Under the pieces are notes generated by a model that was not told the origin of the DNA, ran no database searches, and worked only from the letters and a program-made list of their open reading frames with translations. A stretch of 64,000 bases of DNA from Candidatus Magasanikiibacteriota bacterium (GTDB taxonomy: Bacteria; Patescibacteriota; Patescibacteriia; Magasanikbacterales; UBA922): contig JACQQA010000012.1 of assembly GCA_016207245.1 (NCBI GenBank), forward strand, positions 5,722 to 69,721. The letters are read 5' to 3'. This document shows positions 7,805 through 56,795 of the stretch, in pieces. Numbering within the stretch: the stretch's first letter is position 1; each line of letters begins with the position of its first letter. Both the position numbers and the translations under genes were made by a program.

Positions 7805-7933
7805 TATCTGTCAATTTATGCCCAAATCGGGTATATTGGCAAGAGGAAGGACCGACGCTCTTTACAATAGATTGGATTCGCCATGTTGGCGAGTCTTGCG
7901 ATTTTCGTAATTTCAAGAAAAGCGAGGTGCGCG

Positions 7934-10399: not shown

Positions 10400-10608
10400 A
10401 ACCAACCAGCTCTTTCATAGCCGAAGCAATCCTTCCCGCTTCGGCTCCAATCCCTTTTGTTTATTTTAAAAGTAAACAGAAGAGAACCCCGCCCTGAGCT
10501 TGCCGAAGGACGGGGTTTTATTTATACTTGACTTATTGACCAAATTATTTTATAATTTCCGCAATAAAACAATGACACGCATTCGTCTCGCTTCGCGAGC
10601 CGAAACAA

Positions 10609-10687: not shown

Positions 10688-11782
10688 ATGCTCATCCTCG
10701 GCATTGAATCTTCCTGCGACGACACTTCAATCGCACTGATTGACGCGTCAGCGCGCGGTTTTAAAATACTGGCGGAAAAAACCGCGAGCCAAATTGAGGT
10801 GCACAAAAAATACGGCGGGGTGGTGCCGGAAATCGCGGGGCGGTGCCATGCGGAGCAAATTTTACCCTTGATTGAGAAAGTAATGAAACCCTTCGACTCC
10901 GCTCAGGGTAAACCGGATATAATCGCTGTGACATCAGGACCTGGTTTAATCACCGGCTTAATGGTGGGAGTGGAAGCGGCGAAGACATTGTCTTATTTGT
11001 GGAATATTCCTGTTGTTGCTGTCAATCATATTGATGGCCATATTCACAGTGTGGAGATTCAAAATTCAAAGAAACAAAAAACAAACAATATCAAATATCC
11101 CTGCCTCGCCGGCAGGCAGGCAATATCAAATATCCAATATCCCGCACTTGCGTTGATTGCGAGCGGCGGGCATACGGAGTTAATTTATATAAAAAAAGAA
11201 AACCATTATAAAAAAATCGGCACGACGTTGGATGATGCGGCCGGAGAATGTTTTGACAAAGTGGCAAAGTTGTTGGGGTTTGATTATCCGGGCGGACCAA
11301 AAATTTCTAAATTTGCTGAAACCGGCAATCCGCAGGCAATTAAATTTCCGCGTCCGATGTTAGACAAAAATAATTTTGATTTCAGCTTTGCAGGATTAAA
11401 AACATCCGCGCTTTATTGGCTTAGCGACAATTCTCCTAAAACCTATCACCTAAAACCTAAAACCTTAACAGACTTCTGCGCCAGTTTTGAACAAGCAATC
11501 ATAGATGTCCTCGTAGGCAAAACTCTCAAGGCAGCGGGAAAATACCAACCAAAAACTATTATCATGGGTGGAGGAGTAGCCGCCAATAAAAAATTACGAG
11601 AAACCTTGAAAGAACAAACCAACACACTTATTCCTAATTCATTATTCCTAATTCCTCAATTCGCCTACGCCATGGACAACGCCGCCATGATCGCTGTCGC
11701 CGGATATTATCACGCTATAAAAAAAGACTTCACGCCGTGGCAAAAACTCAAAGCCGATCCGGAGTGGGAGATAACGCGATAA
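10688..11782 (+). CDS. tsaD: tRNA N6-adenosine threonylcarbamoyltransferase TsaD (Kae1/Gcp family)
   Basis: N-terminal GIESSCDDTSIALI and the metal-binding HIDGHIHS motif. Carries an in-frame insertion encoded by a repeat element at 11087-11142. Confidence 0.85.
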   Translation: MLILGIESSCDDTSIALIDASARGFKILAEKTASQIEVHKKYGGVVPEIAGRCHAEQILPLIEKVMKPFDSAQGKPDIIAVTSGPGLITGLMVGVEAAKTLSYLWNIPVVAVNHIDGHIHSVEIQNSKKQKTNNIKYPCLAGRQAISNIQYPALALIASGGHTELIYIKKENHYKKIGTTLDDAAGECFDKVAKLLGFDYPGGPKISKFAETGNPQAIKFPRPMLDKNNFDFSFAGLKTSALYWLSDNSPKTYHLKPKTLTDFCASFEQAIIDVLVGKTLKAAGKYQPKTIIMGGGVAANKKLRETLKEQTNTLIPNSLFLIPQFAYAMDNAAMIAVAGYYHAIKKDFTPWQKLKADPEWEITR

Positions 11783-17111: not shown

Positions 17112-19667
17112 TTATACCACACTTTTCACAATAGTGGTACGCGTCTCCGCCCCAAACTTCTTCTTCAACACTTCTCCAACTCTCACATGCGCCGCGTCAA
17201 CTTCCGCGGATTCGAGTGTCTTGCTGTCTGAACGATAAGTAATGTGATACGCCAGACTCTTTTTACCGGCCGGTAAATTCTTGCCCTCGTAAACGTCAAA
17301 TATTTCCACGCTAGCAATCAGCCGGTCAACTTTTTTAAGCTCAAAAATAATTCGCGCGTGTTCAACTTTTTTATCAACCACAAAAGCAATGTCGCGAATT
17401 ACTTCCGGATAAACCGGCAATGGTTGATAGCGCAAAGAATTTTTTAAAACCAACAATAATTTTTCTAAATCCACTTCCGCCACTACCACTCGCTCGTTAA
17501 TTCCCAAACGCTCGGAAAATGACGGGCTGATCTCGGTAATCGCACCCACGCCTTCGCCATTTACTAAAATTTGCGCCTGCCTGCCCCTGTGGATAACTTT
17601 TCCGAGTTCATGGATTGCCGGCTTTAAAACCACGACACAACCAAGACGATCCAACACACCTGTCAAAGCCGCGGAAAGCTCATAAAATGGCGTTAAAACG
17701 CCTTTACCGGCAAAAACCAGACCCAAATACAGCGGCTGGCCGGGCAATAATTCATCGCTGTTTCCGGAAACCCGCAAACCGGCGACCTCGGAATTAAACA
17801 CTCTGCCGATCTCAAACATTCTTACCGCGTCAAAACGATGCAAATTCACTTCCGCGTTTTCCAACAGGCCGGGCCACAAACTGCGGCGCAAAAACGGACG
17901 ATCTTTAGCCACCGGATTGTCCAACTCTATTAAATCAGCGGGGTCAATTCCCAATCTCTCCAATAATTGTGGCGATACGAAAGAATAGTTATACACTTCG
18001 CTGAAACTAAATTCCAGCGCCAAAATTTCTTTTATTCTTCTTTCTAAACTTCTCAACTCGTTTTTAGGCGGAGGAACAATTGGAAACTTTGGCAATGATG
18101 TTGGAATATTGCCATAACCGTAAATCCGCGCCACTTCTTCCACCAAATCTTCGGCAATGGAAATATCTTTTGTCGCGCGCCAGGTTGGAATTTTAACCAA
18201 CAAAACATCTTTTTTTTCTTTAACTTCAAAATCAAGATCGGATAAAATTTTAACCGCCTGTTTCTTTTCTATTTCCAAACCGATTTTTTTAGATAAAAAC
18301 TCCAGCGGCAATTCAATCGGGCCTTGCTGTAAATGAAAATCTTTCACGTCAATAATTTTACTGGCGATTTTCGCGCCCGGGCACAATTCCAATGTCAATT
18401 CCAGCGCTTTTCGCAAAGCCAGTTCGCAATTGTTCGGGTCCAAACTCTTTTCAAACCGCGCCGAGCTGTCAGTGCGCAAACCAAGTTTGACGGAAGTCCG
18501 GCGCACATTCGCGGCATTAAAATTCGCTGATTCATAAATTACAGCAGTCGTCTCATCTTCAACTCCGCTTTCCCGCCCGCCCATCACCCCGGCCAACGCT
18601 ATCGCCTTATCATTTGAACTAATCACCAAATTCTCCGGTGTCAACTCAAACTCTTTCCCGTCCAAACTAACAAACCTCTCTCCCCCTTCCGCCCTTCGTA
18701 CAACAATCGTGATTTTTGATTTTTGATTTTTGATTTTTGATTTATCAAATGCGTGCATCGGCTGTCCCAAATCCAACATTACATAATTGGTGATATCCAC
18801 AATATTATTTATCGGCCGCAGACCGACTGCCAGCAATTTTTTTTGCAGCCAATCCGGCGACGGCGCGACTTTAATCCCCTCAATCGCCACCGCCATATAG
18901 CGAGGACATAATTTTTTATCCTCAACTCGTACGGACAGGTCGCGACCTGTCCCTATCTTGCAATCTTTAATTTTATAATTCACTAATTTTTTATTAAACA
19001 ACGCTCCCACTTCTCTCGCCATTCCATAATGTCCCCACAAATCCGGCCGATTGGACAAACTTTTGTTGTCAATTTCAAAAATAATGTCATCCAATCCGAG
19101 GACTGCGGACAACGCCTGCCCGCCGATGAGGTGGGGACTACCGACGATTTTGTCATTCCCGTGTAAACGGGAATCCATCGCGTTCGATTTCTGGATCCCC
19201 GCCTCCGCGGGGACGACAAATGAGAGGTCTAGAATCTCTTTCTCGTCTTTTAAGGGAAACCTGTCTCCCAATCCAATCTCGGTTGACGCGCAAATCATGC
19301 CGAATGATTCCACGCCGCGGATTTTCGCTTTTGCCAATTCAACCAATTCGCCTTCGCCGTGCCAGCGCACTTTCGCGCCAATTCTGCCAAACGCGACTTT
19401 CATCCCCTCTTTCACATTTGAGCCGCCGCAAACCACTTGCCAATCTTGCGCGCCGTCATTAACTATACAAACTTTTAACTTATCCGCGTCAGGATGTTTA
19501 ACAACTTTTTTTACCAAACCAACAACAATGTTATCCAAATCTTTTCCTTGCTTAACAATTTTTTCCACCTCCACCGTGCTCATTGTCAATTTCAACGCCA
19601 ACTCTTCCGGAGTGAGAGAGTTTGGCAGATCAATGTATTGTTTGAGCCAGTTAAAACTTATTAACAT
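17112..19667 (-). CDS. pheT: Phenylalanine--tRNA ligase beta subunit
   Basis: 851 aa; N-terminus MLISFNWLKQYIDL and a B3/B4 region (DDIIFEIDNKSLSNRPDLWGHYG). Contains apparent in-frame repeat-element insertions at 19152-19217, 18950-18969 and 18711-18745. Confidence 0.9.
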   Translation of the reverse strand: MLISFNWLKQYIDLPNSLTPEELALKLTMSTVEVEKIVKQGKDLDNIVVGLVKKVVKHPDADKLKVCIVNDGAQDWQVVCGGSNVKEGMKVAFGRIGAKVRWHGEGELVELAKAKIRGVESFGMICASTEIGLGDRFPLKDEKEILDLSFVVPAEAGIQKSNAMDSRLHGNDKIVGSPHLIGGQALSAVLGLDDIIFEIDNKSLSNRPDLWGHYGMAREVGALFNKKLVNYKIKDCKIGTGRDLSVRVEDKKLCPRYMAVAIEGIKVAPSPDWLQKKLLAVGLRPINNIVDITNYVMLDLGQPMHAFDKSKIKNQKSKITIVVRRAEGGERFVSLDGKEFELTPENLVISSNDKAIALAGVMGGRESGVEDETTAVIYESANFNAANVRRTSVKLGLRTDSSARFEKSLDPNNCELALRKALELTLELCPGAKIASKIIDVKDFHLQQGPIELPLEFLSKKIGLEIEKKQAVKILSDLDFEVKEKKDVLLVKIPTWRATKDISIAEDLVEEVARIYGYGNIPTSLPKFPIVPPPKNELRSLERRIKEILALEFSFSEVYNYSFVSPQLLERLGIDPADLIELDNPVAKDRPFLRRSLWPGLLENAEVNLHRFDAVRMFEIGRVFNSEVAGLRVSGNSDELLPGQPLYLGLVFAGKGVLTPFYELSAALTGVLDRLGCVVVLKPAIHELGKVIHRGRQAQILVNGEGVGAITEISPSFSERLGINERVVVAEVDLEKLLLVLKNSLRYQPLPVYPEVIRDIAFVVDKKVEHARIIFELKKVDRLIASVEIFDVYEGKNLPAGKKSLAYHITYRSDSKTLESAEVDAAHVRVGEVLKKKFGAETRTTIVKSVV

Positions 19668-19668: not shown

Positions 19669-20733
19669 TCAGAATTGTTTTAAAAAACGCAGATCCCCGC
19701 CCTGTAAATGTCTAATATCATCAATACAATACCTTTGCATCACCAAACGAGTCATGCCTAAGCCAAAAGCGAAACCCGTCCATTCTTTCGGATCCAAACC
19801 GCCGTATGCCAAAACTTTCGGATGCACCAGACCGCACGGCATTGTCTCAATCCAGCCTGAATGTTTGCACGCCCCACAGCCAACACCGCCGCAGATCAAA
19901 CATTTTATATCCAATTCAAAACCGGGTTCAACAAATTGAAAATGCCCGGGACGCAAACGCGTCTCAACATCGCGCTTAAACACTCCTCGCAATAATTCCT
20001 TCATCACGCCGATTAGGTGAGAGACAGAAATATTTTTATCCACAACCAAACCTTCCAATTGACAAAAAGTGTGCTCATGCGCCGCGTCAGTCGCTTCGTT
20101 GCGGAAACAACGCCCAGGCACCACCATCCGAATTGGCGCGCCATACTTCTCCAAAGCGCGCACCTGCATAGACGATGTTTGGGTGCGCATTACCCAATCA
20201 GAATGGCTTTTGATATAAAAAGTGTCTTGGGTATCGCGAGCCGGATCGTCAGATGGCATATTAAGCGTGGTAAAATTATAATACTCGCTCTCCAACTCCG
20301 GCCCATCCAGCACCATAAAACCCATGGAAGTAAATAAATCTTCCAAATTATTCTGAACTAAAGTGTTGGGATGCAAATGTCCGGCCTCTTTTGCCGGTAA
20401 CTTTGGCTGAGTAACGTCAATAGTTTCTTTTTCTAAAATATCTCCCATTTCCGACATTTTAATTTCCTCTTTTTTCTTCGCGAACACTTCTTCCAGTTCA
20501 TGTTTAACTTCATTTGCTAATTTGCCAAACTCCTGCCGCGCTTCAACAGAAAGGTCTTTCAAATTTTTCATCGCCTGCGTCAGCTCGCCGGAACGGCGGG
20601 AAAAAAATCTTTGTTCCAATTCTTCCAACTGCAAGACATTCTTAATCTCCACCAAACTCTTCAAAAAATCCTTTTTAATTTTTTCTAATTGTTCCTTCAT
20701 AAATAAAGATACTAATGCTTTTTTATTTGTCAT
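19669..20733 (-). CDS. pheS: Phenylalanine--tRNA ligase alpha subunit
   Basis: Class II motifs FRNEATDAAHEHTFCQLEG and GFAFGLGMTRL. The tracked start at 20733 lies inside a tandem repeat element; the ATG at 20698-20700 (MKEQLEKIKKDF...) is the more likely start. Confidence 0.9.
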   Translation of the reverse strand: MTNKKALVSLFMKEQLEKIKKDFLKSLVEIKNVLQLEELEQRFFSRRSGELTQAMKNLKDLSVEARQEFGKLANEVKHELEEVFAKKKEEIKMSEMGDILEKETIDVTQPKLPAKEAGHLHPNTLVQNNLEDLFTSMGFMVLDGPELESEYYNFTTLNMPSDDPARDTQDTFYIKSHSDWVMRTQTSSMQVRALEKYGAPIRMVVPGRCFRNEATDAAHEHTFCQLEGLVVDKNISVSHLIGVMKELLRGVFKRDVETRLRPGHFQFVEPGFELDIKCLICGGVGCGACKHSGWIETMPCGLVHPKVLAYGGLDPKEWTGFAFGLGMTRLVMQRYCIDDIRHLQGGDLRFLKQF

Positions 20734-20798
20734 TCCCGCGAAAGCGGGAACCCAGAAATCGCGTTGTCATTCCCGCGAAAGCGGGAACCCAGAAATCG
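20729..20798. repeat. Tandem direct repeat (2 x ~37 bp) of hairpin unit GTCATTCCCGCGAAAGCGGGAACCCAGAAATCGCGTT
   Basis: Two near-identical units, each a GTCAT-led hairpin (TCCCGC-GAAA-GCGGGA). Member of the GTCAT...ATGAC hairpin element family. Confidence 0.8.
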
Positions 20799-20813: not shown

Positions 20814-21110
20814 TCAAATCATCTCCTCCCACAAATCATGCCAATTCAAGTTAAAATTTTCTATTAATTTTATTTTCCAAGCACGGTTCCATTTTTTTAA
20901 TTGTTTTTCTCTTTTGATCGCTTCTTTTATATCATCAAAAACTTCATAATAAACCAGATTGTGAACTTTGTATTTTTGAGTAAAACCGCGTACTATATTG
21001 TTTTTGTGTTCATACACTCTGCGTTGTAAGTCGTTGGTGACGCCGATGTATAATGTGCCGTTTCTTTGGCTGGCCATGATATATACGCAGTAATGCCGCT
21101 CCTTGAACAT
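20814..21110 (-). CDS. GIY-YIG nuclease superfamily protein (UPF0213-like)
   Basis: YCVYIMASQRNGTLYIGVTNDLQRRVYEH contains the GIY...YIG motif; 98 aa. Confidence 0.75.
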   Translation of the reverse strand: MFKERHYCVYIMASQRNGTLYIGVTNDLQRRVYEHKNNIVRGFTQKYKVHNLVYYEVFDDIKEAIKREKQLKKWNRAWKIKLIENFNLNWHDLWEEMI

Positions 21111-21130
21111 ACGATTGTGCGATTTTTTTC

Positions 21131-21162
21131 GATTTTTGGATCCCCTTTTTCAAGGGGATGAC
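21131..21162. repeat. Half-copy of the hairpin element (GATTTTTGGATCCCCTTTTTCAAGGGGATGAC)
   Basis: Reverse complement of the first half of the 29690-29755 element; ends in ATGAC. Confidence 0.7.
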
Positions 21163-21192
21163 AAGCCGCTTACTACAGTATATTTAGTATTA

Positions 21193-23031: not shown

Positions 23032-23919
23032 ATGTATAGCCAGATTGACTCTAACAAACGCAAGACTGTTTTGTTAGTCGCCATTTTTCTGGTCTTCATC
23101 ATCGCCCTTGGCTGGTTTATCGGCGTGTATTTGAATTATGGCTATGGTATTTTAGTGTTCGCGGTTGTATTTTCTGTCTTGACATCGTTGACGAGCTATT
23201 ACAAAGGCGACAGTATCGCGCTGTCTTCAACCAAAGCGCAAGCAATAAAAAAAGAAGATAATCCATATGTTTACCGGATGGTGGAAAATCTTTGTATCAC
23301 CGCCGGCGCGCCGACGCCGAAAGTATATATTATTGACTCCCCCGCTTTAAACGCCTTTGCGACAGGCCGAGACCCGCAACACGCTTCCATCGCGCTGACC
23401 ACTGGAATTATCAGCGCTTTGGAAAATGAAGAACTGGAAGGCGTTATCGCGCACGAATTATCGCATATTAAAAATTACGATATTCGTCTAATGACAATCG
23501 TCGTGGTGCTGGTCGGAATGATCGCGTTGATTTCCAATTTTTTCTTCCGCGCCAGATTGTTTGGCGGCAAACGCGATTCTGACAATCGCGGCGGAGGTGG
23601 ACAGCTGGGTGGAATAATTATGATAATCGGTTTAGTCTTATTAATCTTGTCGCCGATAATCGCCGAGTTGATAAAACTCGCCATTTCCCGCAAACGCGAA
23701 TATTTGGCCGACGCTTCTGGCGCGCTATTAACCCGTTATCCGGAAGGTCTTGCGCGCGCGCTGGAAAAAATATCGCAGTCAAAAATTCCGCTCGCGACCG
23801 CTTCCTCGGCCACCGCGCATCTTTTTATTTCCAACCCGCTTAAATCCGGAACTTTTTCTAATTTATTTTCCACCCATCCGCCGATAGAAGAGCGGGTTAA
23901 GAGGTTGAGAGAAACATAA
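23032..23919 (+). CDS. htpX: Zinc metalloprotease HtpX (M48 family)
   Basis: HELSHI (HExxH) motif and multiple TM helices. The adjacent LemA-HtpX pairing is common. Confidence 0.85.
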   Translation: MYSQIDSNKRKTVLLVAIFLVFIIALGWFIGVYLNYGYGILVFAVVFSVLTSLTSYYKGDSIALSSTKAQAIKKEDNPYVYRMVENLCITAGAPTPKVYIIDSPALNAFATGRDPQHASIALTTGIISALENEELEGVIAHELSHIKNYDIRLMTIVVVLVGMIALISNFFFRARLFGGKRDSDNRGGGGQLGGIIMIIGLVLLILSPIIAELIKLAISRKREYLADASGALLTRYPEGLARALEKISQSKIPLATASSATAHLFISNPLKSGTFSNLFSTHPPIEERVKRLRET

Positions 23920-23972
23920 AGATTGAATTGTTAAATTGTAAGAATCGACAGCGTTATTTATACTTCTTAAAG

Positions 23973-24067
23973 TCATTGCGAGCCTTCGCAGGCGAAGCAA
24001 TCCACACCGTTATCGCGTTCCCGTGCGATTGCTGGATTGCTTCGTCGCGCGAGCTCCTCGCAATGAC
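23973..24067. repeat. MITE-like element with terminal inverted repeats GTCATTGCGAG...CTCGCAATGAC (~95 bp)
   Basis: GTCATTGCGAGCCTTCGCAGGCGAAGCAATCCA ... GCTGGATTGCTTCGTCGCGCGAGCTCCTCGCAATGAC. Both halves are themselves hairpins. Related copies lie at 36880-36924 and 47103-47191. Confidence 0.8.
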
Positions 24068-24160
24068 TGTTTTGCCACATAAAGCTCGTAAAAGTATAAA
24101 CAACGCGACTAATTCTTACAGCTAAATTGTTAAAAAAAATCCTTCAAAAAGGATTGATTT

Positions 24161-24244: not shown

Positions 24245-24955
24245 CTATGCTGCCTGTTTGAGAGTGAAGTTGTTGGCTGGTTCGGTTCCGAGCAGAAAAA
24301 AACTCACCAATTCGCCCCTTGCGATTTCATCCCAGGATAATAGATAAATTTTATAACCGAACCACCGGTCATAACTGATCAACGCTCTCTTGCTGTTGGG
24401 AAAAAATTCGGTTGACACCCAGCGGTCATAAGGAAGGGCAGACCGGCCCGTGAGACGGTGGTAGCGCAGCAAAAGCAAATACAGGACCAGAACGCGTCCG
24501 CGAGACACCGAATGACTGTCCGGCAGACCCCATTCTTCTTTCAGGACAGATGGGCCACAATCAGTCCGCTCGCTGAAAATCTCCAAAGGGGACCAGAAAA
24601 CGATCGTGGGTTGACTGGGCCAGATGCCGTCGGTCTGCTGACCGAAGATCTTCCGCAGTACCATCGCGTGGCCGAATTCAGCGACGAGCTCCGCGAACGT
24701 CACATTGCCTCGAAAGTACCACGCTATCGGTCCGTGGTAGTTTTTCACCAAGGCAGCTTCACGCCTGATGGTGACGATCGGCTGGAGGTGTTCCGGCACC
24801 TGACTGTCCTCCAGCGGCGTGATGATGTCATCGCCGCCCCTCTTCGCCGGCACGCAGATCCAATCAATGATGTCAAGCGCCAGCGCCGCAATCGTTCCCA
24901 GGACGAATATAGCTAACAGCCACACAGCGCGAACCAGATCCCGCAACTTATTCAT
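24245..24955 (-). CDS. Hypothetical membrane-anchored protein (GC-rich islet)
   Basis: 236-aa ORF with an N-terminal TM helix (LLAIFVLGTIAALALDII). Local GC is clearly higher than the surrounding sequence. No recognisable motif. Confidence 0.45.
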   Translation of the reverse strand: MNKLRDLVRAVWLLAIFVLGTIAALALDIIDWICVPAKRGGDDIITPLEDSQVPEHLQPIVTIRREAALVKNYHGPIAWYFRGNVTFAELVAEFGHAMVLRKIFGQQTDGIWPSQPTIVFWSPLEIFSERTDCGPSVLKEEWGLPDSHSVSRGRVLVLYLLLLRYHRLTGRSALPYDRWVSTEFFPNSKRALISYDRWFGYKIYLLSWDEIARGELVSFFLLGTEPANNFTLKQAA

Positions 24956-29673: not shown

Positions 29674-29689
29674 AGGCTTGTCATCCCCT

Positions 29690-29755
29690 TGAAAAAGGGG
29701 ATCCAAAAATCACACACGATGGATTCCCGTTTCCACGGGAATGACAATTCATAAA
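29690..29755. repeat. Complete two-hairpin MITE-like element (GTCATCCCCTTGAAAAAGGGGATCCAAAAATC ... GATTCCCGTTTCCACGGGAATGAC)
   Basis: Terminal inverted repeats GTCAT/ATGAC; each half is a GC-stem hairpin. Lies downstream of clpC. Confidence 0.8.
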
Positions 29756-33327: not shown

Positions 33328-33380
33328 CGCCCGTCGCCATGGTGTCATTACTTATTTTAATGCCTCTTTCGGTATGTTAG

Positions 33381-33428
33381 AAAGGGATCCCTCGGCTCTC
33401 CCGCCATGGCGGGATCGCTCGGGATGAC
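33381..33428. repeat. Partial hairpin element containing perfect palindrome CCCGCCATGGCGGG and an ATGAC terminus
   Basis: GGGATCCCTCGGCTCTCCCGCCATGGCGGGATCGCTCGGGATGAC. Same CCCGCCATGGCGGG core as at 3008-3021, 36836-36849 and 47163-47176. Confidence 0.7.
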
Positions 33429-33443
33429 AATGCCAAGAATCTT

Positions 33444-34877: not shown

Positions 34878-36247
34878 GCGATATGAAAAGCGGTAATAAT
34901 ACAATCTTCATCTGCTCCAACTGCGGCGCCCAATACCAAAAATGGACGGGTAGATGTTTAGAGTGTGGAAAATGGGGAACCGTCGTTGAACAGAATGCAG
35001 AATACAGCGAACAGAAAGCAAACGAAAAGAATTATGCACCGACTAAAACAATTAAATTATCAGAAATTAAAGGAGAAAATGTAAAAAGACAGCAGACGAA
35101 TTTGGCTGAATTTGATCGGGTGTTGGGCGGCCCTTCGACAAGCTCGGGGCAAGGCGGGATTGTGCCGGGGAGTTTAATTTTGCTGGGCGGAGAACCGGGA
35201 ATCGGCAAATCAACCTTGGCAATTCAATTGGCCGCAATAATACCAAACACGTTATATATTTCCGGCGAAGAATCCGTGGAACAAATAAAATTACGCGCTG
35301 AACGTCTACGGCTTACGGCTTCTAGCTTACGGCTGGCCAATGAAACATTGGTGGAAAAAATCTGCGCCACGATTAAAGAAACAAAATCGCCGTTGGCGAT
35401 AATTGATTCCATCCAAACAATTTATTCCGACGAAGTTCCCGGTGAACAAGGCAACATCAATCAAATTAAAGCCTGCGCGGTAAAACTTTTGGAAACCGCG
35501 AAATCAACCAACACCGCGATAGTCATTGTCGGCCACGTGACCAAAGACGGCGAGGTCGCCGGACCAAAAACCTTGGAACATTTGGTTGATGTTGTTCTTT
35601 ATCTTGAAGGCGAGCGCTATCATCAATATAGAATTTTAAGAACGGTAAAAAACCGATTTGGCCCGACTGATGAAGTGGGTATTTTTGAAATGAAAGAAAA
35701 TGGCTTGCAGGAAGTAAAGAATCCTTCCGCCAGTTTTCTTTCCGAACGCGGAGAAAATATGCCGGGAAGCGTTGTTACTTGTTTGTTGGAAGGAACGCGT
35801 CCGCTGTTGGTGGAAATTCAAGCGCTGGTAAATAAAACATCATTCGGCTATCCGGTGCGCAAAGCCAGCGGGTTTGATTTGAATCGTCTGCATGTTTTAA
35901 CCGCGGTTTTGCAAAAACGCGCCGGCTTGAATCTGGCGCAATATGATATTCATCTCAATGTTGTCGGCGGCATCACTGCCGACGAACCCGCGGCTGACTT
36001 GGCTGTTTGTCTCGCCATCGCCAGCGCTTACAAAGATAAAAAACTCGGCGCGGATTTAGCTGTCTTCGGCGAGGTCGGACTCGGCGGCGAAGTGCGCGGC
36101 GTTACGCAAATTGAAAAAAGAGTGAGAGAGTGCGAGAAGTTAGGAGTGAAGAGGGTGATTACACACCTAAATACGCAAGCACTTAAACACTTAAACATCA
36201 AAGTGACAGATGTGAAGAACATACAGGAGCTGATAAGACAGACGTAA
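34862..36247 (+). CDS. radA: DNA repair protein RadA (Sms)
   Basis: Zinc finger CSNCGAQYQKWTGRCLECGKWG, Walker A GGEPGIGKSTL and a Lon-like C-terminal domain. The probable start is M at ~34883. An in-frame repeat-derived insertion (PSTSSGQG) lies at 35133-35158. Confidence 0.85.
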   Translation: MHYQISDMKSGNNTIFICSNCGAQYQKWTGRCLECGKWGTVVEQNAEYSEQKANEKNYAPTKTIKLSEIKGENVKRQQTNLAEFDRVLGGPSTSSGQGGIVPGSLILLGGEPGIGKSTLAIQLAAIIPNTLYISGEESVEQIKLRAERLRLTASSLRLANETLVEKICATIKETKSPLAIIDSIQTIYSDEVPGEQGNINQIKACAVKLLETAKSTNTAIVIVGHVTKDGEVAGPKTLEHLVDVVLYLEGERYHQYRILRTVKNRFGPTDEVGIFEMKENGLQEVKNPSASFLSERGENMPGSVVTCLLEGTRPLLVEIQALVNKTSFGYPVRKASGFDLNRLHVLTAVLQKRAGLNLAQYDIHLNVVGGITADEPAADLAVCLAIASAYKDKKLGADLAVFGEVGLGGEVRGVTQIEKRVRECEKLGVKRVITHLNTQALKHLNIKVTDVKNIQELIRQT

Positions 36248-36835: not shown

Positions 36836-36924
36836 CCCGCCATGGCGGGACAAAAGCGGGCATTGTAAAGAACGAACGACTGGATTGCTTAGTCAACGCC
36901 TCATCGGCGACTCCTCGCAATGAC
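36836..36924. repeat. Hairpin elements: palindrome CCCGCCATGGCGGG (36836-36849) plus half-element CTGGATTGCTTAGTC...CTCCTCGCAATGAC (36880-36924)
   Basis: Related to the right half of the 23973-24067 element. A terminator-like hairpin (AAAACCCCGCTTTTTCAGCGGGGT) follows at ~36931-36958. Confidence 0.7.
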
Positions 36925-37145
36925 AGAATTAAAAACCCCGCTTTTTCAGCGGGGTATTATTCTTGGTATTATTCGCGCTTACGCACGGATATTCCTTGAA
37001 CAATTCGCCCCGCCGGATACAACGTAAAACAAACGAATCCAGTCAATACGCTTTACGGTTGTCGGACAAATTGTTCTTTGTAAGTTTTTCATACTATTTT
37101 TAGTATATCAAAAACTAGTTTTTACGCAAATCCACTTATCCACAC

Positions 37146-45343: not shown

Positions 45344-46399
45344 TTAATCATCGTACCAGCACAACGAATAGACATTATCGTCACTATCGTAGACTTTTTG
45401 ACAGGAGGTGTGCGGGAAGATGTTAGTTGGGCAGTCGGCGTCCGACTCGCAGTTGCAGAATGATGGATCGCCGTCATCACACCCCAGCGGGCAGATAGTT
45501 TGCGCCTTAAAGGGGTAAGTGCAGATGCTGTCCACGCACTTGCGATCTTTCATACCCGTGACGTACCAAACACCATCTTTGCATGAAGGAAGGTACGCGA
45601 CGTTCAAGTCACAGTCCTCATCGGACTCACACGGGCCCCATCCCGATGCGCAACCTCCAGTTTGGTAGTCGCACACATCGATGGTATCAGGGTCTCCATC
45701 GTTGCAGTCCGGCACATGCTCACACTGTTGGGAGACAGTACTGAAAAAGTCTACTGTGCAAGCGATGCTGTCATCGCAGTTTCCGTAGGGGTATTTCTGG
45801 CATTTAGCCGGAAAGAAGCTATCATCGTAACAATACCCATCCGGACCCAAAGCATCCTTACAGTCTTCGTACTCCACTAAATGTTCGCATTTGCCGTACA
45901 CGCATATGAACGTGTCCGACGATTCGTATGCCAGGTTGTCGCCCTGGCACCATGTAAGGTTGTTCCAGAATATATCTAACGTTCCGTTCGAATACGCAAG
46001 TTGGCAGTCGAACCCATCTTTGCACAACGTGCAGTAGGGTTCCTTGATTTTCGCGCACCCGCCCCCCTCCCATGTAGAGTGTACGCAGGCGTTGTCTTTG
46101 TACTCCTCCCCTTCTTCGCACGACCCAATGCAGTGTGGAATGGTAGCATGAGCGCAGTGTCTGTCTTGCGGATAGTATTTTTCCACAGTGCACGGATCAC
46201 CATCGTCGTCGCAGTCTTCATCAATTGTGCGTAGCCCGACATTGCTGTCAGCGTCGATGGAGGACGTCGTGTCCACATCACCGCTGTCCTCCGACGTGGA
46301 CTGGTAGGCGGTATCAACCGAGAGACTGGAACCGGAATCGGGACAGGCGGTCAGAAACAAAAACGAGAACAGGAACATGGTCGTCACGAAACGGTACAT
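45344..46399 (-). CDS. Cysteine-rich secreted lipoprotein
   Basis: Signal peptide with lipobox LFLTAC (MYRFVTTMFLFSFLFLTAC) after RBS GGGAG. An acidic S/D-rich linker, then >40 Cys in CDDGDPC / CxDxDxD-type repeats. GC content is above the window average. The tracked ORF starts upstream at 46426. Confidence 0.65.
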   Translation of the reverse strand: MYRFVTTMFLFSFLFLTACPDSGSSLSVDTAYQSTSEDSGDVDTTSSIDADSNVGLRTIDEDCDDDGDPCTVEKYYPQDRHCAHATIPHCIGSCEEGEEYKDNACVHSTWEGGGCAKIKEPYCTLCKDGFDCQLAYSNGTLDIFWNNLTWCQGDNLAYESSDTFICVYGKCEHLVEYEDCKDALGPDGYCYDDSFFPAKCQKYPYGNCDDSIACTVDFFSTVSQQCEHVPDCNDGDPDTIDVCDYQTGGCASGWGPCESDEDCDLNVAYLPSCKDGVWYVTGMKDRKCVDSICTYPFKAQTICPLGCDDGDPSFCNCESDADCPTNIFPHTSCQKVYDSDDNVYSLCWYDD

Positions 46400-46416
46400 G
46401 GTAATCTCCCTTGCGC

Positions 46417-46434
46417 GATTGCGCAATTATTGTA
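46417..46434. promoter_or_regulatory. Near-palindromic 16-bp operator-like site TTGCGCGATTGCGCAA between the putative -10 (TACAAT) and RBS of the Cys-rich lipoprotein gene
   Basis: TTGCGC..GCGCAA inverted repeat. A second inverted repeat, GGGACAccatTGTCCC (46443-46458), lies just upstream in the -35 to -10 spacer. Confidence 0.4.
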
Positions 46435-46625: not shown

Positions 46626-47705
46626 CTAATTTTGTGCGGATTTCCTCAACTTACACACAAAAAACCCCTCAATCTCCTTTGTCGGCATTATCCGCAGGGC
46701 TTTTTTGACAACATCTGGATTTACCACCTTATTTTTCCACAACTTCACACACGACAATCGCCGAATATCTAATACTCCAATATCCAATATCTCGCCATCG
46801 CCATTCCGTTCCAAAAATTTCGTCATCTGCAATTCGTTCTCCTCCGGCGCGAAGGTGCAAGTGGAATAAACTAAAATCCCGCCGGGTTTTAGCGCGCTCC
46901 AGGCGGCGAGCAAAAGCCCCCATTGCTTATACGTCATTTCTTTTATTTTTTGCTCTTTCCAATAACCGTGGGTTTTCGGCTCGCCGGCGATAAACCGCGC
47001 TTCGGCGCTGCAGGGGGCGTCAAGCAATATCTTGTCAAAATATTCCGGATACTCGCGGCACAGAGCGCCGCCGTGCTCCATCCTCAACGAAAACCGCCAA
47101 CTGTCATTGCGAGCGACCGAAGGGAGCGCGGCAATCCAGTATCCGTCCTGGATTGCTTCGTCCCCCGCCATGGCGGGGTCCTCGCAATGACAGACGATAC
47201 CGAGCGCCTCCATATTATGCTTTAACTTAAAAAATCTAATTTTGTTATTATCATTCGCCACTAATTCACCTCTTAGCCCTCCGCCCAAGGCGGATCCGTC
47301 TGGGTCGGACATCAACGCCGCGATCTGCGAAGTTTTGCTTCCGGGCGCGGCGGTCAAATCCAAAACTTTTTCTCCGGGTTGGGGATCCAAAACCAACGGC
47401 GGAATCATACTCGCCAAACTTTGGATATAAATTTTTCCCTCATTATAAATATCCAAATCCGTTAATTCTCTTTTGCTTTTGTTTAACAAAATAAACGCGT
47501 CTTTATACCACGAAACTTGTCTGATCTTAAATCCTCGCTCAACGAGTGATGTAGTGATGATGTGATGCGGTGATTTAAGTGTATTAACGCGAAAAGTAGT
47601 AGAACGTTCAACAAAAGTTTTCTCAATCTCGCGAAACAAAGAAACGCCAAACATCTCTGTCAGGCGCTCTAAAAATTTTTCCGGCAGACTACGATCATGG
47701 AACAT
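46626..47705 (-). CDS. rRNA (cytosine-C5) methyltransferase, RsmB/RsmF (NOL1/NOP2/Sun) family
   Basis: SAM-binding DLTAAPGSKTSQIA, catalytic DAPCS and YSTCT motifs. Contains three apparent in-frame repeat-derived insertions (46764-46791, 47103-47191, 47283-47297). Confidence 0.8.
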   Translation of the reverse strand: MFHDRSLPEKFLERLTEMFGVSLFREIEKTFVERSTTFRVNTLKSPHHIITTSLVERGFKIRQVSWYKDAFILLNKSKRELTDLDIYNEGKIYIQSLASMIPPLVLDPQPGEKVLDLTAAPGSKTSQIAALMSDPDGSALGGGLRGELVANDNNKIRFFKLKHNMEALGIVCHCEDPAMAGDEAIQDGYWIAALPSVARNDSWRFSLRMEHGGALCREYPEYFDKILLDAPCSAEARFIAGEPKTHGYWKEQKIKEMTYKQWGLLLAAWSALKPGGILVYSTCTFAPEENELQMTKFLERNGDGEILDIGVLDIRRLSCVKLWKNKVVNPDVVKKALRIMPTKEIEGFFVCKLRKSAQN

Positions 47706-47719
47706 AGAACATGGAACAA

Positions 47720-48088
47720 CTACCGCCCGAGCTTCCTTCTAATACCTTCATTGGTACTATAAAGCATAGCGCTGATTTCGTTTTCTAAAGTTTTTGCCTT
47801 TTTGTATTCTTCTTCAGTGATATGTCCTAAATTCTTTGCTAAAAATTTAACATAAATTGACTCTTTCAAAGAGCCAAAAGATGTTTCGTAAAAATTCAAT
47901 TTTACCGCGTCCCGCATTCTTGCATAACCTTCCAAATAATTCAACATCACCGAGACTGACGCTCGCCGATCTTGCGAAATCAAACCGAACCGTTCATCAG
48001 GTGGATACTTCGCGCTTAATCTATAACTTAACAAAACATATTCATGAATCAAAACTTTCAATCTATCATGAAAATAATGCTCCTCCAT
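47720..48088 (-). CDS. Four-helix-bundle protein (family often encoded in 23S rRNA intervening sequences)
   Basis: LSAKYPPDERFGLISQDRRASVSVMLNYLEGYAR resembles the conserved core of the four-helix-bundle family (TIGR02436-like); 122 aa. Confidence 0.5.
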   Translation of the reverse strand: MEEHYFHDRLKVLIHEYVLLSYRLSAKYPPDERFGLISQDRRASVSVMLNYLEGYARMRDAVKLNFYETSFGSLKESIYVKFLAKNLGHITEEEYKKAKTLENEISAMLYSTNEGIRRKLGR

Positions 48089-48132
48089 AAATTTGTTAAA
48101 TGCTCAATGTTCCATTCTCCATGTTCCATCCG

Positions 48133-49452
48133 TCATGGTCTCAAACGATTAATCGTCCGCGGAAAGGGAACACACTCTCTGATGTGCTCGGCGCCGGAAA
48201 TCCAACGCACGACGCGCTCCACGCCAATACCAAAGCCGGAATGCGGCACCGAACCATATTTGCGCAAGTCTAAGTACCATTCATAATCTTTCTCGCTCAA
48301 ACCTTCGTGACCGATTCTCTCTATCAACAAATCATAATCATCCTCGCGCTGGGACCCGCCGATTAGCTCACCCGCGCCCTCAATCCCGATTAAATCATCA
48401 TTCAAAACCAAATCTGAATTTCCCGGATCTATTTTCATATAAAACGGCTTAATATTTTTAGGCCATTTTTCTATAAACACCGGCACGTCAGAATCTTTTG
48501 TTAAAAGCCCCTCGTCATCATTACCCAAATCCTCGCCATGTTTTATATCACTGCCTAATTTATTTAACTTTTTAATCGCCTCATCATAAGTATAACGAAC
48601 AAAAGGTTTATCAACCATCACCCTCAAAGCAGTCACATCGCGTTCCAAAATTTTAAATTCTTGTTGGCAATCTTCCAAACATTTTTTTACTATCGCCTTA
48701 ACTAAATTTTCTTGAATTTTCAAGTTTTCGTCATGTTCCACAAACGCGGCTTCAGCATCCATCATCCAAAACTCGGTCAAATGGCGTTTAGTCGCTGATT
48801 TTTCCGCGCGAAAAACCGGGCCAAAATCATAACACCGCCCGACTGACGCGATCGCGGCTTCAATATATAACTGGCCGGATTGAGATAAATAAGCTGTGCC
48901 TAAATCAAAATATGGCACGGGGAAAAGCGTGGTCGTGCCTTCGCAGGCATTTGGAGTAAAAATCGGCGAGTCAGTACGGATAAAATTCTCGCTGTGCAGA
49001 TATTTGTTAATCGCGGTCTCCACCGTGTCTCTAATCCGCAAAATCGCCCATTGTTTTTTTGACCGCAACCACAAATGCCGATTATCCATCAAAAATTCCG
49101 GCCCATGGTCTTTTTTGCTTATTGGGTATTCTTGCGCGAGTTGTATAATCTTGAAACTTGCTTGCCCTGAGCTTGCCGAAGGGATAATTTGCAACTCATA
49201 CACCCCTTCCTGCTTCGGATGCTTTGTGACTTTCCCCGTCACTTCAACCGATGACTCCTGCGTCGTCTTATCAATCGCTTCCCAAACTTCCGCCGGTAAA
49301 CCTTCTTTCACTGCCACGGCCTGCGCAAAACCAGAACCATCGCGGATTTCCAAAAACGCAATCTTGCCGGACGAACGTTTGTTGTTCAGCCAGCCTTTAA
49401 TTGTTACCTCCTCACCGACTTCGGTTGATAAATCTTTGATAAATGTTTGCAT
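48133..49452 (-). CDS. asnS: Asparagine--tRNA ligase (class IIb)
   Basis: OB fold FLEIRDGSG, the AsnRS-type LSQSGQLY motif (versus QSPQ in AspRS) and motif 3 GFGIGVERVVRWI; 439 aa. An in-frame repeat-derived insertion (PSASSGQAS) lies at 49168-49192. Confidence 0.65.
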   Translation of the reverse strand: MQTFIKDLSTEVGEEVTIKGWLNNKRSSGKIAFLEIRDGSGFAQAVAVKEGLPAEVWEAIDKTTQESSVEVTGKVTKHPKQEGVYELQIIPSASSGQASFKIIQLAQEYPISKKDHGPEFLMDNRHLWLRSKKQWAILRIRDTVETAINKYLHSENFIRTDSPIFTPNACEGTTTLFPVPYFDLGTAYLSQSGQLYIEAAIASVGRCYDFGPVFRAEKSATKRHLTEFWMMDAEAAFVEHDENLKIQENLVKAIVKKCLEDCQQEFKILERDVTALRVMVDKPFVRYTYDEAIKKLNKLGSDIKHGEDLGNDDEGLLTKDSDVPVFIEKWPKNIKPFYMKIDPGNSDLVLNDDLIGIEGAGELIGGSQREDDYDLLIERIGHEGLSEKDYEWYLDLRKYGSVPHSGFGIGVERVVRWISGAEHIRECVPFPRTINRLRP

Positions 49453-49690
49453 ATTTTCCAGACTTAAGACATAAGGCGTATGACGTAAGACGATAGATAA
49501 GAAAATCGTCCTAAACCCTATGCCCTACACCCTACGTCAGATTTTACCATTTTCCGCTTAAATAAGCAAGATTAAAAATGATGAAGCCCGATCGGATGAC
49601 CGGGCGAAGGTGGGTATCCGCCCAAGGCGGACAAGTTCGCGCGAGGCGAATAAGAAAAAAGAGCAACGGAGGAAGTGGCTGGCGTCGTTT

Positions 49691-52406: not shown

Positions 52407-53023
52407 ATTGCCTCCACACCCCAATCAACCACTTTCCTTTCCAACCTCTCAACTAAAAAATTATAAATAAAATTATGTAATTCTCTGTGTTCTGTTAACT
52501 GTGTTATGTGTTTTGAAATAACCGGCCAATCTTGATTCTTCATAATTTCCAAATCACGCAAAAAGCGGAACTCAACGCCAGACGCAGTTATATCATACCC
52601 TAAACAATTTAACAATTTGACAATGAAACCATCTAATAACTTAAGATTTAAGATTGAAGATTTAAGATTGACGAACTCTAACCACGATTTTAATAAATCA
52701 AAAATTCTCTCATCCTTCTCACCAACATGCAGAATTTTATCTAAAAGCGAAACCACATAACCGGCGGCTAAACTTTTTTGCAAATCTTGTCTGATATTAA
52801 CAAAGTAATTTATCGGCTGGACTTTGGTGAGGTGGTCAATCCCCTTTCCGGGCGCGATTTCAATATCAACCAAAGAAAACGGCTCCAAATGAGCCGAGTT
52901 TTTAGAAATAATTTTTTTAACCCCGCGAGCCATCAGCTCTACTTTGCCTCTTTCTTTGGTGTAGCAACTTATGATCTGGTCGGATTCGCGGAAGTCTCGC
53001 CTAGTCAAGACAATAGCTTGCAT
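52400..53023 (-). CDS. recO: DNA repair protein RecO
   Basis: MQAIVLTRRDFRESDQIISCYTKERGKVELMARGVKK (RecO N-terminal OB-fold signature); 207 aa. Confidence 0.7.
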   Translation of the reverse strand: MQAIVLTRRDFRESDQIISCYTKERGKVELMARGVKKIISKNSAHLEPFSLVDIEIAPGKGIDHLTKVQPINYFVNIRQDLQKSLAAGYVVSLLDKILHVGEKDERIFDLLKSWLEFVNLKSSILNLKLLDGFIVKLLNCLGYDITASGVEFRFLRDLEIMKNQDWPVISKHITQLTEHRELHNFIYNFLVERLERKVVDWGVEAIY

Positions 53024-54273: not shown

Positions 54274-54279
54274 AATAAA

Positions 54280-55968: not shown

Positions 55969-56795
55969 AATTTTTCTGATGGCCGGCGAGTTACAACTAT
56001 CGGTTCTTTTTCTGTAATCACGATGGTATGTTCCTGGTGTGCGCACAAGCTGTTGTCCGCGGTTTTGACACTCCAGCCGTCATCGGCAGTAACAATATGC
56101 CAATCTCCCATTGTTATCATCGGCTCAATCGCGATAACTACACCGGGCTGTAAGACCCATTTCTCACCCTCTTTATCATAGTAATTCGGCACCCGCGGTT
56201 CTTCATGCACCGCGTGGCCAACGCCATGGCCGACTAAATCTCGCACAATGCCGTAACCCTGCGGCTCAACATATTTCTGAATCGTCCGACCTATGTCCGC
56301 CACGGTATTTCCAACTACACATTGTTTAATTCCGATTTCCAGCGCTTTTCTCGTCACATTCAACAACTGCTTCGTCCTATCCGGAATCTTCCCCACCGCC
56401 AATGTAATCGCCGTATCAGTAAAATATCCTCGCTCAGATTTGATATTGGATATTGGATATTTGATATTCTTTGTGGGATATTCCATTCCAATATCAATAC
56501 TAAAAATATCACCGTCTTTCAAAACTTTATTTTTGCTGGCAATACCATGCACCAGCTCATCATTCACGCACGCACAAATTGTGGTTGGAAACGGCGGGTC
56601 ATTTTTTTTGCCCTTATAACCCTTAAAAGCCGGTTTTCCACCAGCTTCGCGAATCAAACGCTCGGCTTCTTGATCGATTTCCAAAGCGCAAACACCAGGC
56701 TTAACCATTTTGCTTAATTTTTCTAAAATCTCACCCAAAATCAACCCGCCCTCTTGGATGAATTTGATTTCGTCGGTGGTTTTAGTGTAGGACAT
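55965..56795 (-). CDS. map: Methionine aminopeptidase type I
   Basis: Metal-binding residues in DGDIFSIDIG, GHGVGHAVHEEP and ITEKEP. Contains a ~15-aa in-frame insertion (PTKNIKYPISNIKSE) encoded by AATATC-type repeats at 56442-56469. Confidence 0.85.
   Translation of the reverse strand: MSYTKTTDEIKFIQEGGLILGEILEKLSKMVKPGVCALEIDQEAERLIREAGGKPAFKGYKGKKNDPPFPTTICACVNDELVHGIASKNKVLKDGDIFSIDIGMEYPTKNIKYPISNIKSERGYFTDTAITLAVGKIPDRTKQLLNVTRKALEIGIKQCVVGNTVADIGRTIQKYVEPQGYGIVRDLVGHGVGHAVHEEPRVPNYYDKEGEKWVLQPGVVIAIEPMITMGDWHIVTADDGWSVKTADNSLCAHQEHTIVITEKEPIVVTRRPSEKL

Follow-up and report, generated by a model that had tools for sequence, protein, structure and literature searches.

Introduction

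The original report of the Rickettsia palindromic elements (RPEs) is said to be that of Ogata et al. (2000, Science 290:347). RPEs lie in frame in unrelated housekeeping genes, where they are translated and compatible with the fold of the host protein, and are found between genes as well (PMC10969869, PMC3733652). Two of them, RPE-4 and RPE-6, belong with Neisseria dRS3 to the superfamily of CGTC-tagged repetitive extragenic palindromes (REPs), whose units consist of a CGTC or TGTC (also CCTC) tag, an 8-9-bp stem starting with AT, a 4-5-nt loop and a CCA tail; they occur chiefly as inverted dimers with 20-100-bp spacers, have no dedicated transposase, and lie mostly downstream of open reading frames (ORFs), between convergent or co-directional genes (PMC3733652, Di Nocera, De Gregorio, Rocco 2013). 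Intragenic dimers encode 20-30 amino acids, often in repair genes; different REPs can strike the same recB site; CGTC-3 dimers are translated VIAGLDPAIH...VKPGHD, corresponding to GTC ATT GCC GGG...GCA ATC CA; and RPE-6 dimers end ...RFRGND (PMC3733652). Here we examine a 93-nt palindromic element within an RsmB/F-family methyltransferase gene, on a 64,000-nt stretch of DNA (the window; positions 5,722 to 69,721 of contig JACQQA010000012.1, assembly GCA_016207245.1) from a Candidatus Magasanikiibacteriota bacterium. We believe, with a probability of about 0.8, that the element is a non-autonomous hairpin doublet related to the CGTC-tagged REPs, for which Ssn-related motifs (SRMs) is another name, which inserted in frame and is now carried as a disordered surface loop of 31 residues.

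A second described system is that of the Ssn family of GIY-YIG proteins (cd10448), site-specific nucleases of single-stranded DNA (ssDNA). Its Neisseria member SsnA binds the NTS hairpin (CGTCATTCCCGCGMAVGCGGGAATCYRG) only as ssDNA and cuts a few nucleotides upstream of it; binding depends critically on the C that follows the palindrome, and cleavage on the three nucleotides that precede it (Chenal et al. 2025, PMC11893778). The NTS-ssnA-NTS arrangement resembles an insertion sequence (IS), and Ssn-driven spread of repeats has been proposed, not demonstrated; the published SRM pattern for such repeats reads HGTCWYN(0-2)YYVSBRHN(0-5)WNVSBRGN(0-2)RNCYNB (PMC11893778).

The host methyltransferase and its intragenic element

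The gene, the element and their parts are as follows (positions are those of the window).

46626-47705, minus strand: host gene, encoding a 359-residue class I S-adenosylmethionine (SAM)-dependent 5-methylcytosine (m5C) RNA methyltransferase of the RsmB/NOP family (from Pfam, PDB, AlphaFold2 and Foldseek)
47101-47193: 93-nt palindromic element, a doublet of two inverted hairpin units, 31 codons in the predicted alphaB-beta3 loop (from the terminal inverted repeat, fold and orthologs)
47101-47139, plus strand: unit A, with C-TGTC tag, ATTGC basal stem, GAG internal loop, apical hairpin, GCAAT and CCAG tail
47148-47193, minus strand: unit B (inverted), with TGTC tag, ATTGC, GAGGA, apical hairpin CCCCGCCATGGCGGGG, GACGAA, GCAAT and CCAG (from the ssDNA fold)
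47163-47178 (14-nt core 47164-47177): nested 14-16-nt palindrome CCCGCCATGGCGGG, a separate dispersed module forming the apical hairpin of unit B
47271-47309, minus strand: first insertion site, 13 codons SDPDGSALGGGLR, 67% GC, in the predicted alphaA-beta2 loop; the native state is 3 residues

The host protein, which is 100% identical to an NCBI protein of a Candidatus Magasanikbacteria metagenome-assembled genome (MAG), comprises an RsmF_N ferredoxin-like domain (PF17125, Methyltr_RsmF_N) and a methyltransferase domain (PF01189, Methyltr_RsmB-F; 2e-37, 129 bits vs a cutoff of 27), the match to the latter being broken into two stretches; sequence matches in the PDB (1ixk, 3m6u from T. thermophilus RsmF, and 2yxl) each run in two stretches that bypass the inserts. 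Motif I DLTAAPGSKT (D116-K124), motif IV DAPC(232)S and motif VI TC(283)T are invariant in 34 orthologs, the catalytic cysteines being C232 (motif IV PC) and C283 (motif VI TC). Despite the insert, the gene keeps its reading frame and every SAM-binding and catalytic motif, as a preliminary description of this DNA, made from the letters alone, had held for the catalytic motifs. The same description called the protein an RsmB-like rRNA methyltransferase: it is indeed RsmB/F-like, but an rRNA target is not established, because the protein scores below cutoff for every NCBIfam equivalog (RsmB, RsmF and tRNA m5C49), for example 153 vs 319 for the RsmB model NF011494 and 168 vs 550 for the tRNA m5C49 model.

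The standard topology of class I methyltransferases allows the inserts to be placed relative to the Rossmann sheet. In an AlphaFold2 (AF2) model built with the ortholog alignment as input (predicted local distance difference test score [pLDDT] 85, predicted template modeling score 0.87), pLDDT falls below 50 only at residues 137-140 and 174-193 (both inserts) besides the first three residues, and the top Foldseek matches are Nop2, RsmF and PH1374 (1ixk). The model places the inserts in the alphaA-beta2 and alphaB-beta3 loops, at the N-terminal edge of the sheet and opposite the SAM/catalytic pocket; it predicts that the enzyme keeps its fold and that the inserts are disordered surface loops.

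An approximately 89-bp repeat copy translated within this gene had been proposed from the outset, and its GTCATTGCGAG arms lie exactly where they were placed (47103-47113, with the reverse complement at 47181-47191; 5 sites in the window vs 1.12 expected). The inverted repeat extends to a perfect 13 nt, CTGTCATTGCGAG (47101-47113) and CTCGCAATGACAG (47181-47193), so the full element measures 93 nt (31 codons). Its predicted minus-strand translation, in frame and free of stop codons, is CHCEDPAMAGDEAIQDGYWIAALPSVARNDS (CHCE...ARNDS), flanked by LKHNMEALGIV and WRFSLRMEHG...FDKILLDAPCS, and predicted peptides across the region include DGYWIAALPSVAR and NDSWR. Its GC content is 63% vs 44% for the remaining gene. 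Folded as the gene strand it reaches -57.7 kcal/mol (z = -7.4; 0 of 200 shuffles), and it is highly stable on either strand; unit A, separated from unit B by an 8-nt spacer, folds as ssDNA into a CTG/CAG clamp, an ATTGC/GCAAT stem and an apical hairpin.

Assemblies often go wrong at palindromic repeats, and one might suppose that the segment is missing from the mature product, whether the gene is a disrupted pseudogene, the segment is removed in the manner of an intron or intein, or the assembly is at fault. We consider this very improbable: i) the ORF is intact and its motifs are invariant; ii) the element has no intron, intein or homing-endonuclease features, and Rfam, searched at the gathering threshold and at permissive E-values, returned no family for it; iii) the same insert with the same junctions is present in two independent JGI assemblies of a related organism (L001 and L002), and a related insert in two ENA assemblies; and iv) the length of the insert is divisible by three in each case.

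Insertion relative to orthologs

Alignment of orthologs confirms insertion and maps the extra segments to the alphaA-beta2 and alphaB-beta3 loops of the model. Loop lengths were compared in 120 orthologs (56-83% identity), the alphaB-beta3 loop being taken as the residues between LGV and LRMEHG. It has 13 residues or fewer in 49 of the 120 (mode 11, e.g. VADEREGWKFT; six read VNAK or similar) and more than 13, up to 66, in the remaining 71, with at least five peptide-signature families of inserts; those other than the present one include PHPNPPLKGEG (12 orthologs), HPSQEGN/TPRP (4) and RH(P/S)EQ...QDD, all signatures of GC-rich repeats. The inserts, some of them composite or nested, have boundaries that vary by 0-8 residues among orthologs; such variation points to selection, the loop being tolerant of extra residues, and not to one nucleotide target. 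In other orthologs, several unrelated repeat families have colonized the same two loops.

The syntenic locus L003, with its asparaginyl-tRNA synthetase (AsnRS), 23S rRNA-intervening-sequence protein and methyltransferase genes, carries the short allele LGVNAKLRMEHG. The sister ortholog P0002 (80% amino acid identity; L001 and L002) has the same element at the same site, 90 nt long, with junctions GTC / TGTCATTGCGAG...CAATGACAG / TTGGCG matching those of the window, and P0003 (L004) has a decayed relative of 96 nt, with arms GAAATCC, ATCGC and CGATGAC. The alignment shows that the element is an insertion, and that it predates the split from the 80%-identity ortholog. The shared insert does not belong to a homolog whose genome is free of the repeat, for L001 has another copy at 2893-2986. 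P0003 clusters with short-loop (VNAK/VDAK) orthologs yet has a CHCE...PRDD element (L004 1940-2040), and the 23 nt that follow this element downstream (TGGCGGTTTTCGTTGAGGATGGA) match the window exactly; the pattern suggests recombination, or repeated loop deletion among the relatives of P0003.

At the first insertion site, the TCCGCCCAAGGCGGA segment had likewise been taken for repeat-derived, and insertion is borne out (13 codons vs 3 in L001, L003 and 104 of the 120 orthologs); only the coordinates require correction, the 15-nt core palindrome lying at 47280-47294 and its second copy at 49617-49631 instead of 47283-47297 and 49623-49637 (2 sites in the window vs 0.04 expected; 1 of 100 shuffles reached 2). 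Inserts of the DGSA(L/S)GG type occur at this site in 10 orthologs dispersed across the tree, with SQALLRQGYGGQ in two. By comparison with the orthologs, the segment is a genuine 10-codon insertion, younger than the 93-nt element.

Other copies in the window and in a related genome

Two further copies lie in the window.

23972-24067: full intergenic doublet copy, sharing its termini and its GAAGCAATCC/GGATTGCTTC sub-terminal arms with the intragenic element; -57.2 kcal/mol, z = -8.3
36880-36926, minus strand: single unit (half copy), TGTC-ATTGC...GCAAT-CCAG, intergenic between convergent genes, with a CCCGCCATGGCGGG palindrome 30 nt away

The near-identical architecture of the first copy and the intragenic element was correctly recognized in the preliminary description, which began the copy one base too late. 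The methyltransferase element is itself a copy of the repeat, as the intergenic copies have exactly the same termini and sub-terminal arms; in addition, GGATTGCTTCG is found at 47150-47160 and on both arms of 23972-24067. The four units of the window, folded singly as ssDNA, share one architecture and differ in their apical stems. The full intergenic copy sits between convergent genes, an M48 peptidase (23032-23919, plus) and an ORF (24245-24955, minus), and is bracketed by a 29-nt imperfect inverted repeat (79% complementary; 23937-23965 and 24092-24120); it may have landed inside an older palindrome or terminator.

The CCCGCCATGGCGGG palindrome of unit B recurs at 33400-33413 and 36836-36849, exactly as first described, and at 3009-3022, one base from the position first given (4 sites in the window vs 0.01 expected). 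In L001 the orthologous unit has GAGCGAGGAACGAGC where unit B of the window has CCCGCCATGGCGGG: one apical hairpin module of the element has been exchanged for another dispersed palindrome. A TGTC-tagged unit on the minus strand at 33380-33432 has the basal stem ATCCC/GGGAT and the CCCGCCATGGCGGG palindrome as its apical hairpin, and since CCCGCCATGGCGGG is found in two different unit types, this mini-palindrome is an exchangeable apical module. A Patescibacteria copy in another genome (L063) has CCCCGAGCTTGTCGAGGGG at the apical position, resembling a 20-mer inserted in the AsnRS gene of the window. That AsnRS-like gene (48133-49452, minus; a class II aminoacyl-tRNA synthetase) contains an in-frame 8-residue insert, IPSASSGQ, at 49162-49185, which is absent from AsnRS orthologs of 88-90% identity; its 24 nt are a copy of the dispersed 20-mer GCCCTGAGCTTGCCGAAGGG, with others at 10491-10510 (in a terminator-like hairpin) and 35131-35150.

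The second L001 copy (2893-2986) lies between the MgtE and Nramp genes, at a site not orthologous to that of the window copy 23972-24067, with which it shares identical arms; the genes flanking these copies in the two genomes differ by about 20%. The orthologous MgtE-Nramp junction of the window (54274-54279) is only a 6-nt spacer. Copies of the element therefore differ in location between related genomes, although the junction is not a clean empty site, there being about 90 nt of additional AT-rich spacer beside the element in L001. The L001 spacer measures about 180 nt (2860-3035) and contains the full element copy; the JGI call for Nramp begins inside the element (2897; 463 aa vs 415 aa), and this N-terminal extension is probably spurious.

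Conservation of nucleotides rather than peptide

Within the element, the window and L001 are 73% identical in amino acids (85% in the rest of the gene), 87% identical in nucleotides (81% in the rest) and 87% identical at third positions (66% in the rest), and 9 of 9 four-fold sites are identical (70% in the rest); the 8 codons that differ all encode another amino acid. With the swapped apical module set aside, the element differs at 4 of 77 nt, vs 26 of 86 four-fold sites in the remaining gene (Fisher p = 3e-5), and none of the 44 stem nucleotides has changed. Since the split from the L001 ortholog, it is the nucleotides of the element, rather than its peptide, that have been conserved. Conservation of the arms is far above neutral: the hairpin may be under purifying selection, the copies may undergo gene conversion, or the hairpin may serve as a template for correction.

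These figures bear on two other explanations. The first is that the segment is a native, lineage-specific loop selected for enzyme function, perhaps as an RNA- or metal-binding CHC motif, with the likeness to a repeat secondary; the in-frame insert in three lineages (90, 93 and 96 nt) and the Cys-His-Cys within CHCE would fit such a loop. The peptide is, however, less conserved than the remaining protein and the DNA more so; CHCE is no more than what the terminal repeat TGTCATTGCGAG encodes, and RHCE or LHCE can stand in its place; AF2 models the segment as a low-confidence loop; and the same DNA element is intergenic in the window and present in many phyla. We regard a native loop as the least probable of the explanations considered here.

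The second is that the intragenic palindrome is kept for a function as nucleic acid, either as an Ssn site in ssDNA (for recombination or transformation) or as a structured mRNA element (for translation or decay), the peptide being a by-product. The unchanged stems, the 4 of 77 differences against 30% four-fold divergence, and the fact that every codon change alters the peptide are all as expected for such a function, as are the very stable fold on both strands and the arms of the intergenic copy, identical in two genomes with diverged flanking genes; moreover, the unit retains GTC before and C after the palindrome, the key SsnA positions in Neisseria (PMC11893778), and the window encodes an Ssn homolog at a distance of 26 kb. 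The same pattern could nevertheless come from gene conversion between copies or from correction templated by the hairpin; the relative in L004 has decayed arms; 49 of the 120 orthologs have no insert at all; no intrinsic terminator or promoter signal is found at the intragenic element; and the unit fails the published SRM pattern. We judge a retained nucleic-acid function unlikely, and continue to favor an in-frame insertion of the hairpin doublet carried as a surface loop.

An Ssn-type GIY-YIG nuclease as candidate partner

The window encodes a possible source of mobility in trans.

20814-21110, minus strand: ssnA-like gene for a GIY-YIG nuclease of 98 aa (PF01541, 7e-20), the candidate trans-acting partner
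21130-21164, minus strand: CGTC-1/NTS-like unit directly upstream of the GIY-YIG gene, TTGTC ATCCCCTT GAAAA AGGGGAT CCA AAAATCG
20727-20761 and 20764-20798, plus strand: two tandem CGTC-1/NTS-like units directly downstream of the GIY-YIG gene, inverted relative to the upstream unit
19150-19184 and 29678-29712: solo CGTC-1/NTS-like units

The downstream units read TGTC-ATTCCCGC-GAAA-GCGGGAAC-CCA, and the SRM pattern is matched in the window at 19151, 20728 and 20765 only (3 matches vs 0.18 in shuffles). The nuclease is a member of the Ssn family (PMC11893778), and its homologs are 64-74% identical across many, very distant phyla. A CGTC-tagged hairpin lies no more than 200 nt from the gene at 73 of 80 homolog loci from metagenomes, and on both sides at 50, typically inverted with the tags outward; the density of such hairpins is 4.67 per kb near the gene vs 0.42 per kb farther off. 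By analogy, we reason that this nuclease is a candidate Ssn partner for the methyltransferase element.

Related repeats across bacteria

One genome per species was scanned with the pattern GTCATTGCGAG-N50-80-CTCGCAATGAC, and at least 120 loci, spread over about ten phyla, are built as GTCATTGCGAG-[GC hairpin]-GAAGCAATCC-loop-GGATTGCTTC-..-CTCGCAATGAC. Among the matches listed, i) the hosts include Alpha- and Gammaproteobacteria, Bacteroidota, Chloroflexota, Planctomycetota, Cyanobacteria, Desulfobacterota and Patescibacteria; ii) the common plan is (C/T)GTC, ATTGC, GAG, a variable GC-rich hairpin, GAA/GTG, GCAAT, CC(A), a variable spacer and the mirror image; iii) the base preceding GTC is C in 87 copies and T in 35 (122 of 129), giving CGTC or TGTC; iv) GCAAT is followed by a CCA tail in 58 of 103 copies, other tails being CTC, CCC, CTT and CGC; v) the four positions beyond GCAAT/ATTGC vary yet pair, at 4 of 4 positions in 67 and 3 of 4 in 31 of 103 copies; and vi) the apical hairpin of these ATTGCGAG-type units is variable, 12-30 nt long. 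No protein family recurs within 2.5 kb of the 129 copies listed, save generic ABC ATPases; the ORF clusters near them consist of these ATPases and spurious ORFs spanning the repeat, and only one 'UvrA' member contains the element.

Doublets of the ATTGCGAG type are in frame in two gammaproteobacterial MAGs, in UvrA (L053 1761-4490; peptide VIASKAKQSH...APRND) and in GMP synthase (GuaA; L046 4073-5743; peptide VIARPRSGAAIS...APRND), so in-frame insertion is not specific to the candidate phyla radiation (CPR). The upstream part of the L053 UvrA ORF also has an HSEQSEES-type (ATTCTGAG) unit. A protein search with the insert peptide as a tandem query gave only 15 tiny hypothetical ORFs from 125 candidates and is unusable as a census. 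A literature string search for GTCATTGCGAG and CTCGCAATGAC returned unrelated primers only; the supplements of PMC3733652 hold no ATTGCGAG-type entries; and the searchable literature gave no account of palindromic repeats translated within housekeeping genes of CPR/Patescibacteria.

A bolder reading is that the ATTGCGAG-type doublets make up a fifth family of Ssn-related (CGTC-tagged) hairpin repeats, pan-bacterial and so far undescribed, whose apical modules can be exchanged and whose stems are under purifying selection in coding sequence since the intragenic copies are functional. Taken as a whole we find it doubtful. Were it true, the intragenic copies would not be inert passengers: they might act as structured elements of the mRNA, or be bound or cut by Ssn and so influence recombination or transformation at the host gene.

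Neighboring genes and other repeats

The preliminary description counted a copy of an AATATC family at 46764-46791 as a further repeat within the gene. A period-7 array (AATATCC x3.9) does lie exactly there, and we have rejected it as an inserted repeat: it encodes a native ILDIxILxDI motif, with GAT ATT / ATA TTR codons in the four orthologs examined, and adds no length to this conserved coding sequence, the window protein being one residue shorter there than its orthologs. Three repeat types have still been absorbed, as claimed, with a different membership: the CGTC-type doublet, the nested CCCGCCATGGCGGG palindrome and the 15-nt palindrome of the first insertion. Other AATATCC-type arrays lie at 11121-11142 and 56438-56468, and 7-nt-period tandem arrays (3-5 copies, with differing units) abound between genes and at gene starts, that of the methyltransferase among them; examples are 18710-18743, 11435-11465, 49460-49492, 52641-52669, 47696-47718 and 48107-48129. 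An NDK gene with a split Pfam match was also tried as a further example of insertion and discarded, its extra segment having no repeat signature.

Between AsnRS and the methyltransferase, the window (47720-48088) and L003 have a gene for a 23S rRNA-intervening-sequence protein (PF05635); its place in L001 (9474-10029) and L004 (892-1433) is taken by a RelB/YafQ-ParE-like toxin-antitoxin pair overlapping the start of the methyltransferase gene. On the other side of the methyltransferase, immediately downstream, 45344-46426 encodes a 360-aa Cys/Asp-rich, secreted-looking protein which has no Pfam match and is absent at the syntenic L001 locus; a second such protein, of 838 aa, is encoded at 7883-10399 and has Dicty_CTDC repeats (repeat family D2 at the DNA level).

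Interpretation

We propose that the repeat landed in the alphaB-beta3 surface loop of the Rossmann fold, away from the SAM/catalytic pocket. Such loops would be hot spots mainly as rare sites tolerant of in-frame inserts in a gene-dense genome (the genome harboring the gene is about 89% coding), and would thus act as a selection filter; existing palindromes may in turn attract or seed further palindromes. The units could spread as ssDNA hairpins, with an Ssn-type GIY-YIG nuclease, such as that at 20814-21110, acting in trans, and the insert would be selfish, or neutral for the enzyme.

Several observations weigh against this interpretation, or against parts of it. Strong conservation of nucleotides inside coding sequence is unexpected for a purely neutral passenger. 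Among the orthologs we found no species-level empty allele, so recent mobility of the methyltransferase copy is not shown, and no clean empty-site junction could be defined. No target-site duplication was seen at the three window copies or among the 129 copies from other genomes; the flanks of the window copies read CCAA/ACGA and TAAA/TGTT, without duplication. The basal stem of the element has only 5 bp, with a GAG.../...GAA internal loop and a variable GC-rich apical hairpin, unlike CGTC-1 to CGTC-4. Regarding a nuclease partner, the SRM pattern is unmatched by the ATTGCGAG-type units at 47101-47193, 23972-24067 and 36880-36926; tblastn found no Ssn gene beside any of about 125 ATTGCGAG-type copies among the matches listed; and at the 80 Ssn homolog loci no flanking ATTGCGAG-type unit was seen. 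The Ssn link of the ATTGCGAG-type element is therefore by resemblance only.

The locus extends Rickettsia-type palindromic repeats within housekeeping genes to CPR/Patescibacteria, and offers a clear natural experiment: across 120 orthologs, at least five families of repeats have colonized a pair of surface loops in a single methyltransferase. The repeat evolves as a nucleic-acid palindrome and not as a peptide, even in coding sequence. A small CPR genome with an Ssn gene, canonical units and intragenic doublets would be a compact test system for Ssn-driven repeat spread. There is also a practical side, in that such inserts lengthen proteins, split domain matches and cause spurious gene-start calls in CPR annotations.

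Comparison with known repeat systems

The resemblance to CGTC-tagged REPs is close. Both units of the element open with a TGTC tag, have an AT-starting stem (ATTGC/GCAAT) and end in a CCAG tail; the doublet is inverted, with a spacer, and can fold as one large hairpin; other copies in the window lie between convergent genes; and no transposase gene adjoins the repeats. With CGTC-3 and RPE-6 in particular the element shares the outward-tag arrangement and the frame GTC-ATTGC...GCAAT-CCA. The described hosts of CGTC repeats do not include Patescibacteria, Chloroflexota, Planctomycetota or Cyanobacteria, whereas the ATTGCGAG type is present there. Judging from tag, stem and tail, the element is best regarded as a relative of the CGTC-tagged REP superfamily, and is probably an uncatalogued sub-family of it.

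The Ssn/NTS system is matched in the window by an Ssn homolog flanked by inverted NTS-like units, which reproduces the NTS-ssnA-NTS layout, and by the methyltransferase element, which retains the GTC before the palindrome and the C after it. REPINs are doublets of GTAG REPs mobilized by IS200/IS605-like Y1 transposases known as RAYTs. Like the element, they are inverted REP doublets that form a long hairpin, are non-autonomous, are thought to move as ssDNA hairpins and leave no target duplication; unlike them, the element has a CGTC/TGTC rather than a GTAG tag and no associated RAYT, its candidate partner being a GIY-YIG nuclease. Intragenic miniature inverted-repeat transposable elements (ERIC, Correia, Nezha; PMC10969869) are similarly small, bear terminal inverted repeats, are non-autonomous and are capable of in-frame fusions, whereas the element has no target-site duplication or related IS transposase and has termini conserved across phyla.

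The RPEs provide a precedent for a palindromic repeat in frame at a fold-compatible surface position of a coding gene. RPE-4 and RPE-6 dimers begin GTC ATT... and end ...RGND or ...RRND, and the methyltransferase element ends ...ARND; the peptide signatures of RPE-4 and RPE-6, to which this sequence comparison was limited, are otherwise different (SFLRKQES..., VIPWLDHGI). Further differences are that the host is a member of the Patescibacteria (Candidatus Magasanikbacteria), that the unit is of the type ATTGCGAG...GAAGCAAT with a modular apical hairpin, and that expression in vivo has been shown for some RPE proteins, whereas the window element is known from sequence. We wish to emphasize that the phenomenon has been known since 2000 and was catalogued in 2013: what we describe is a new lineage and a somewhat aberrant type of unit, not a new kind of biology.

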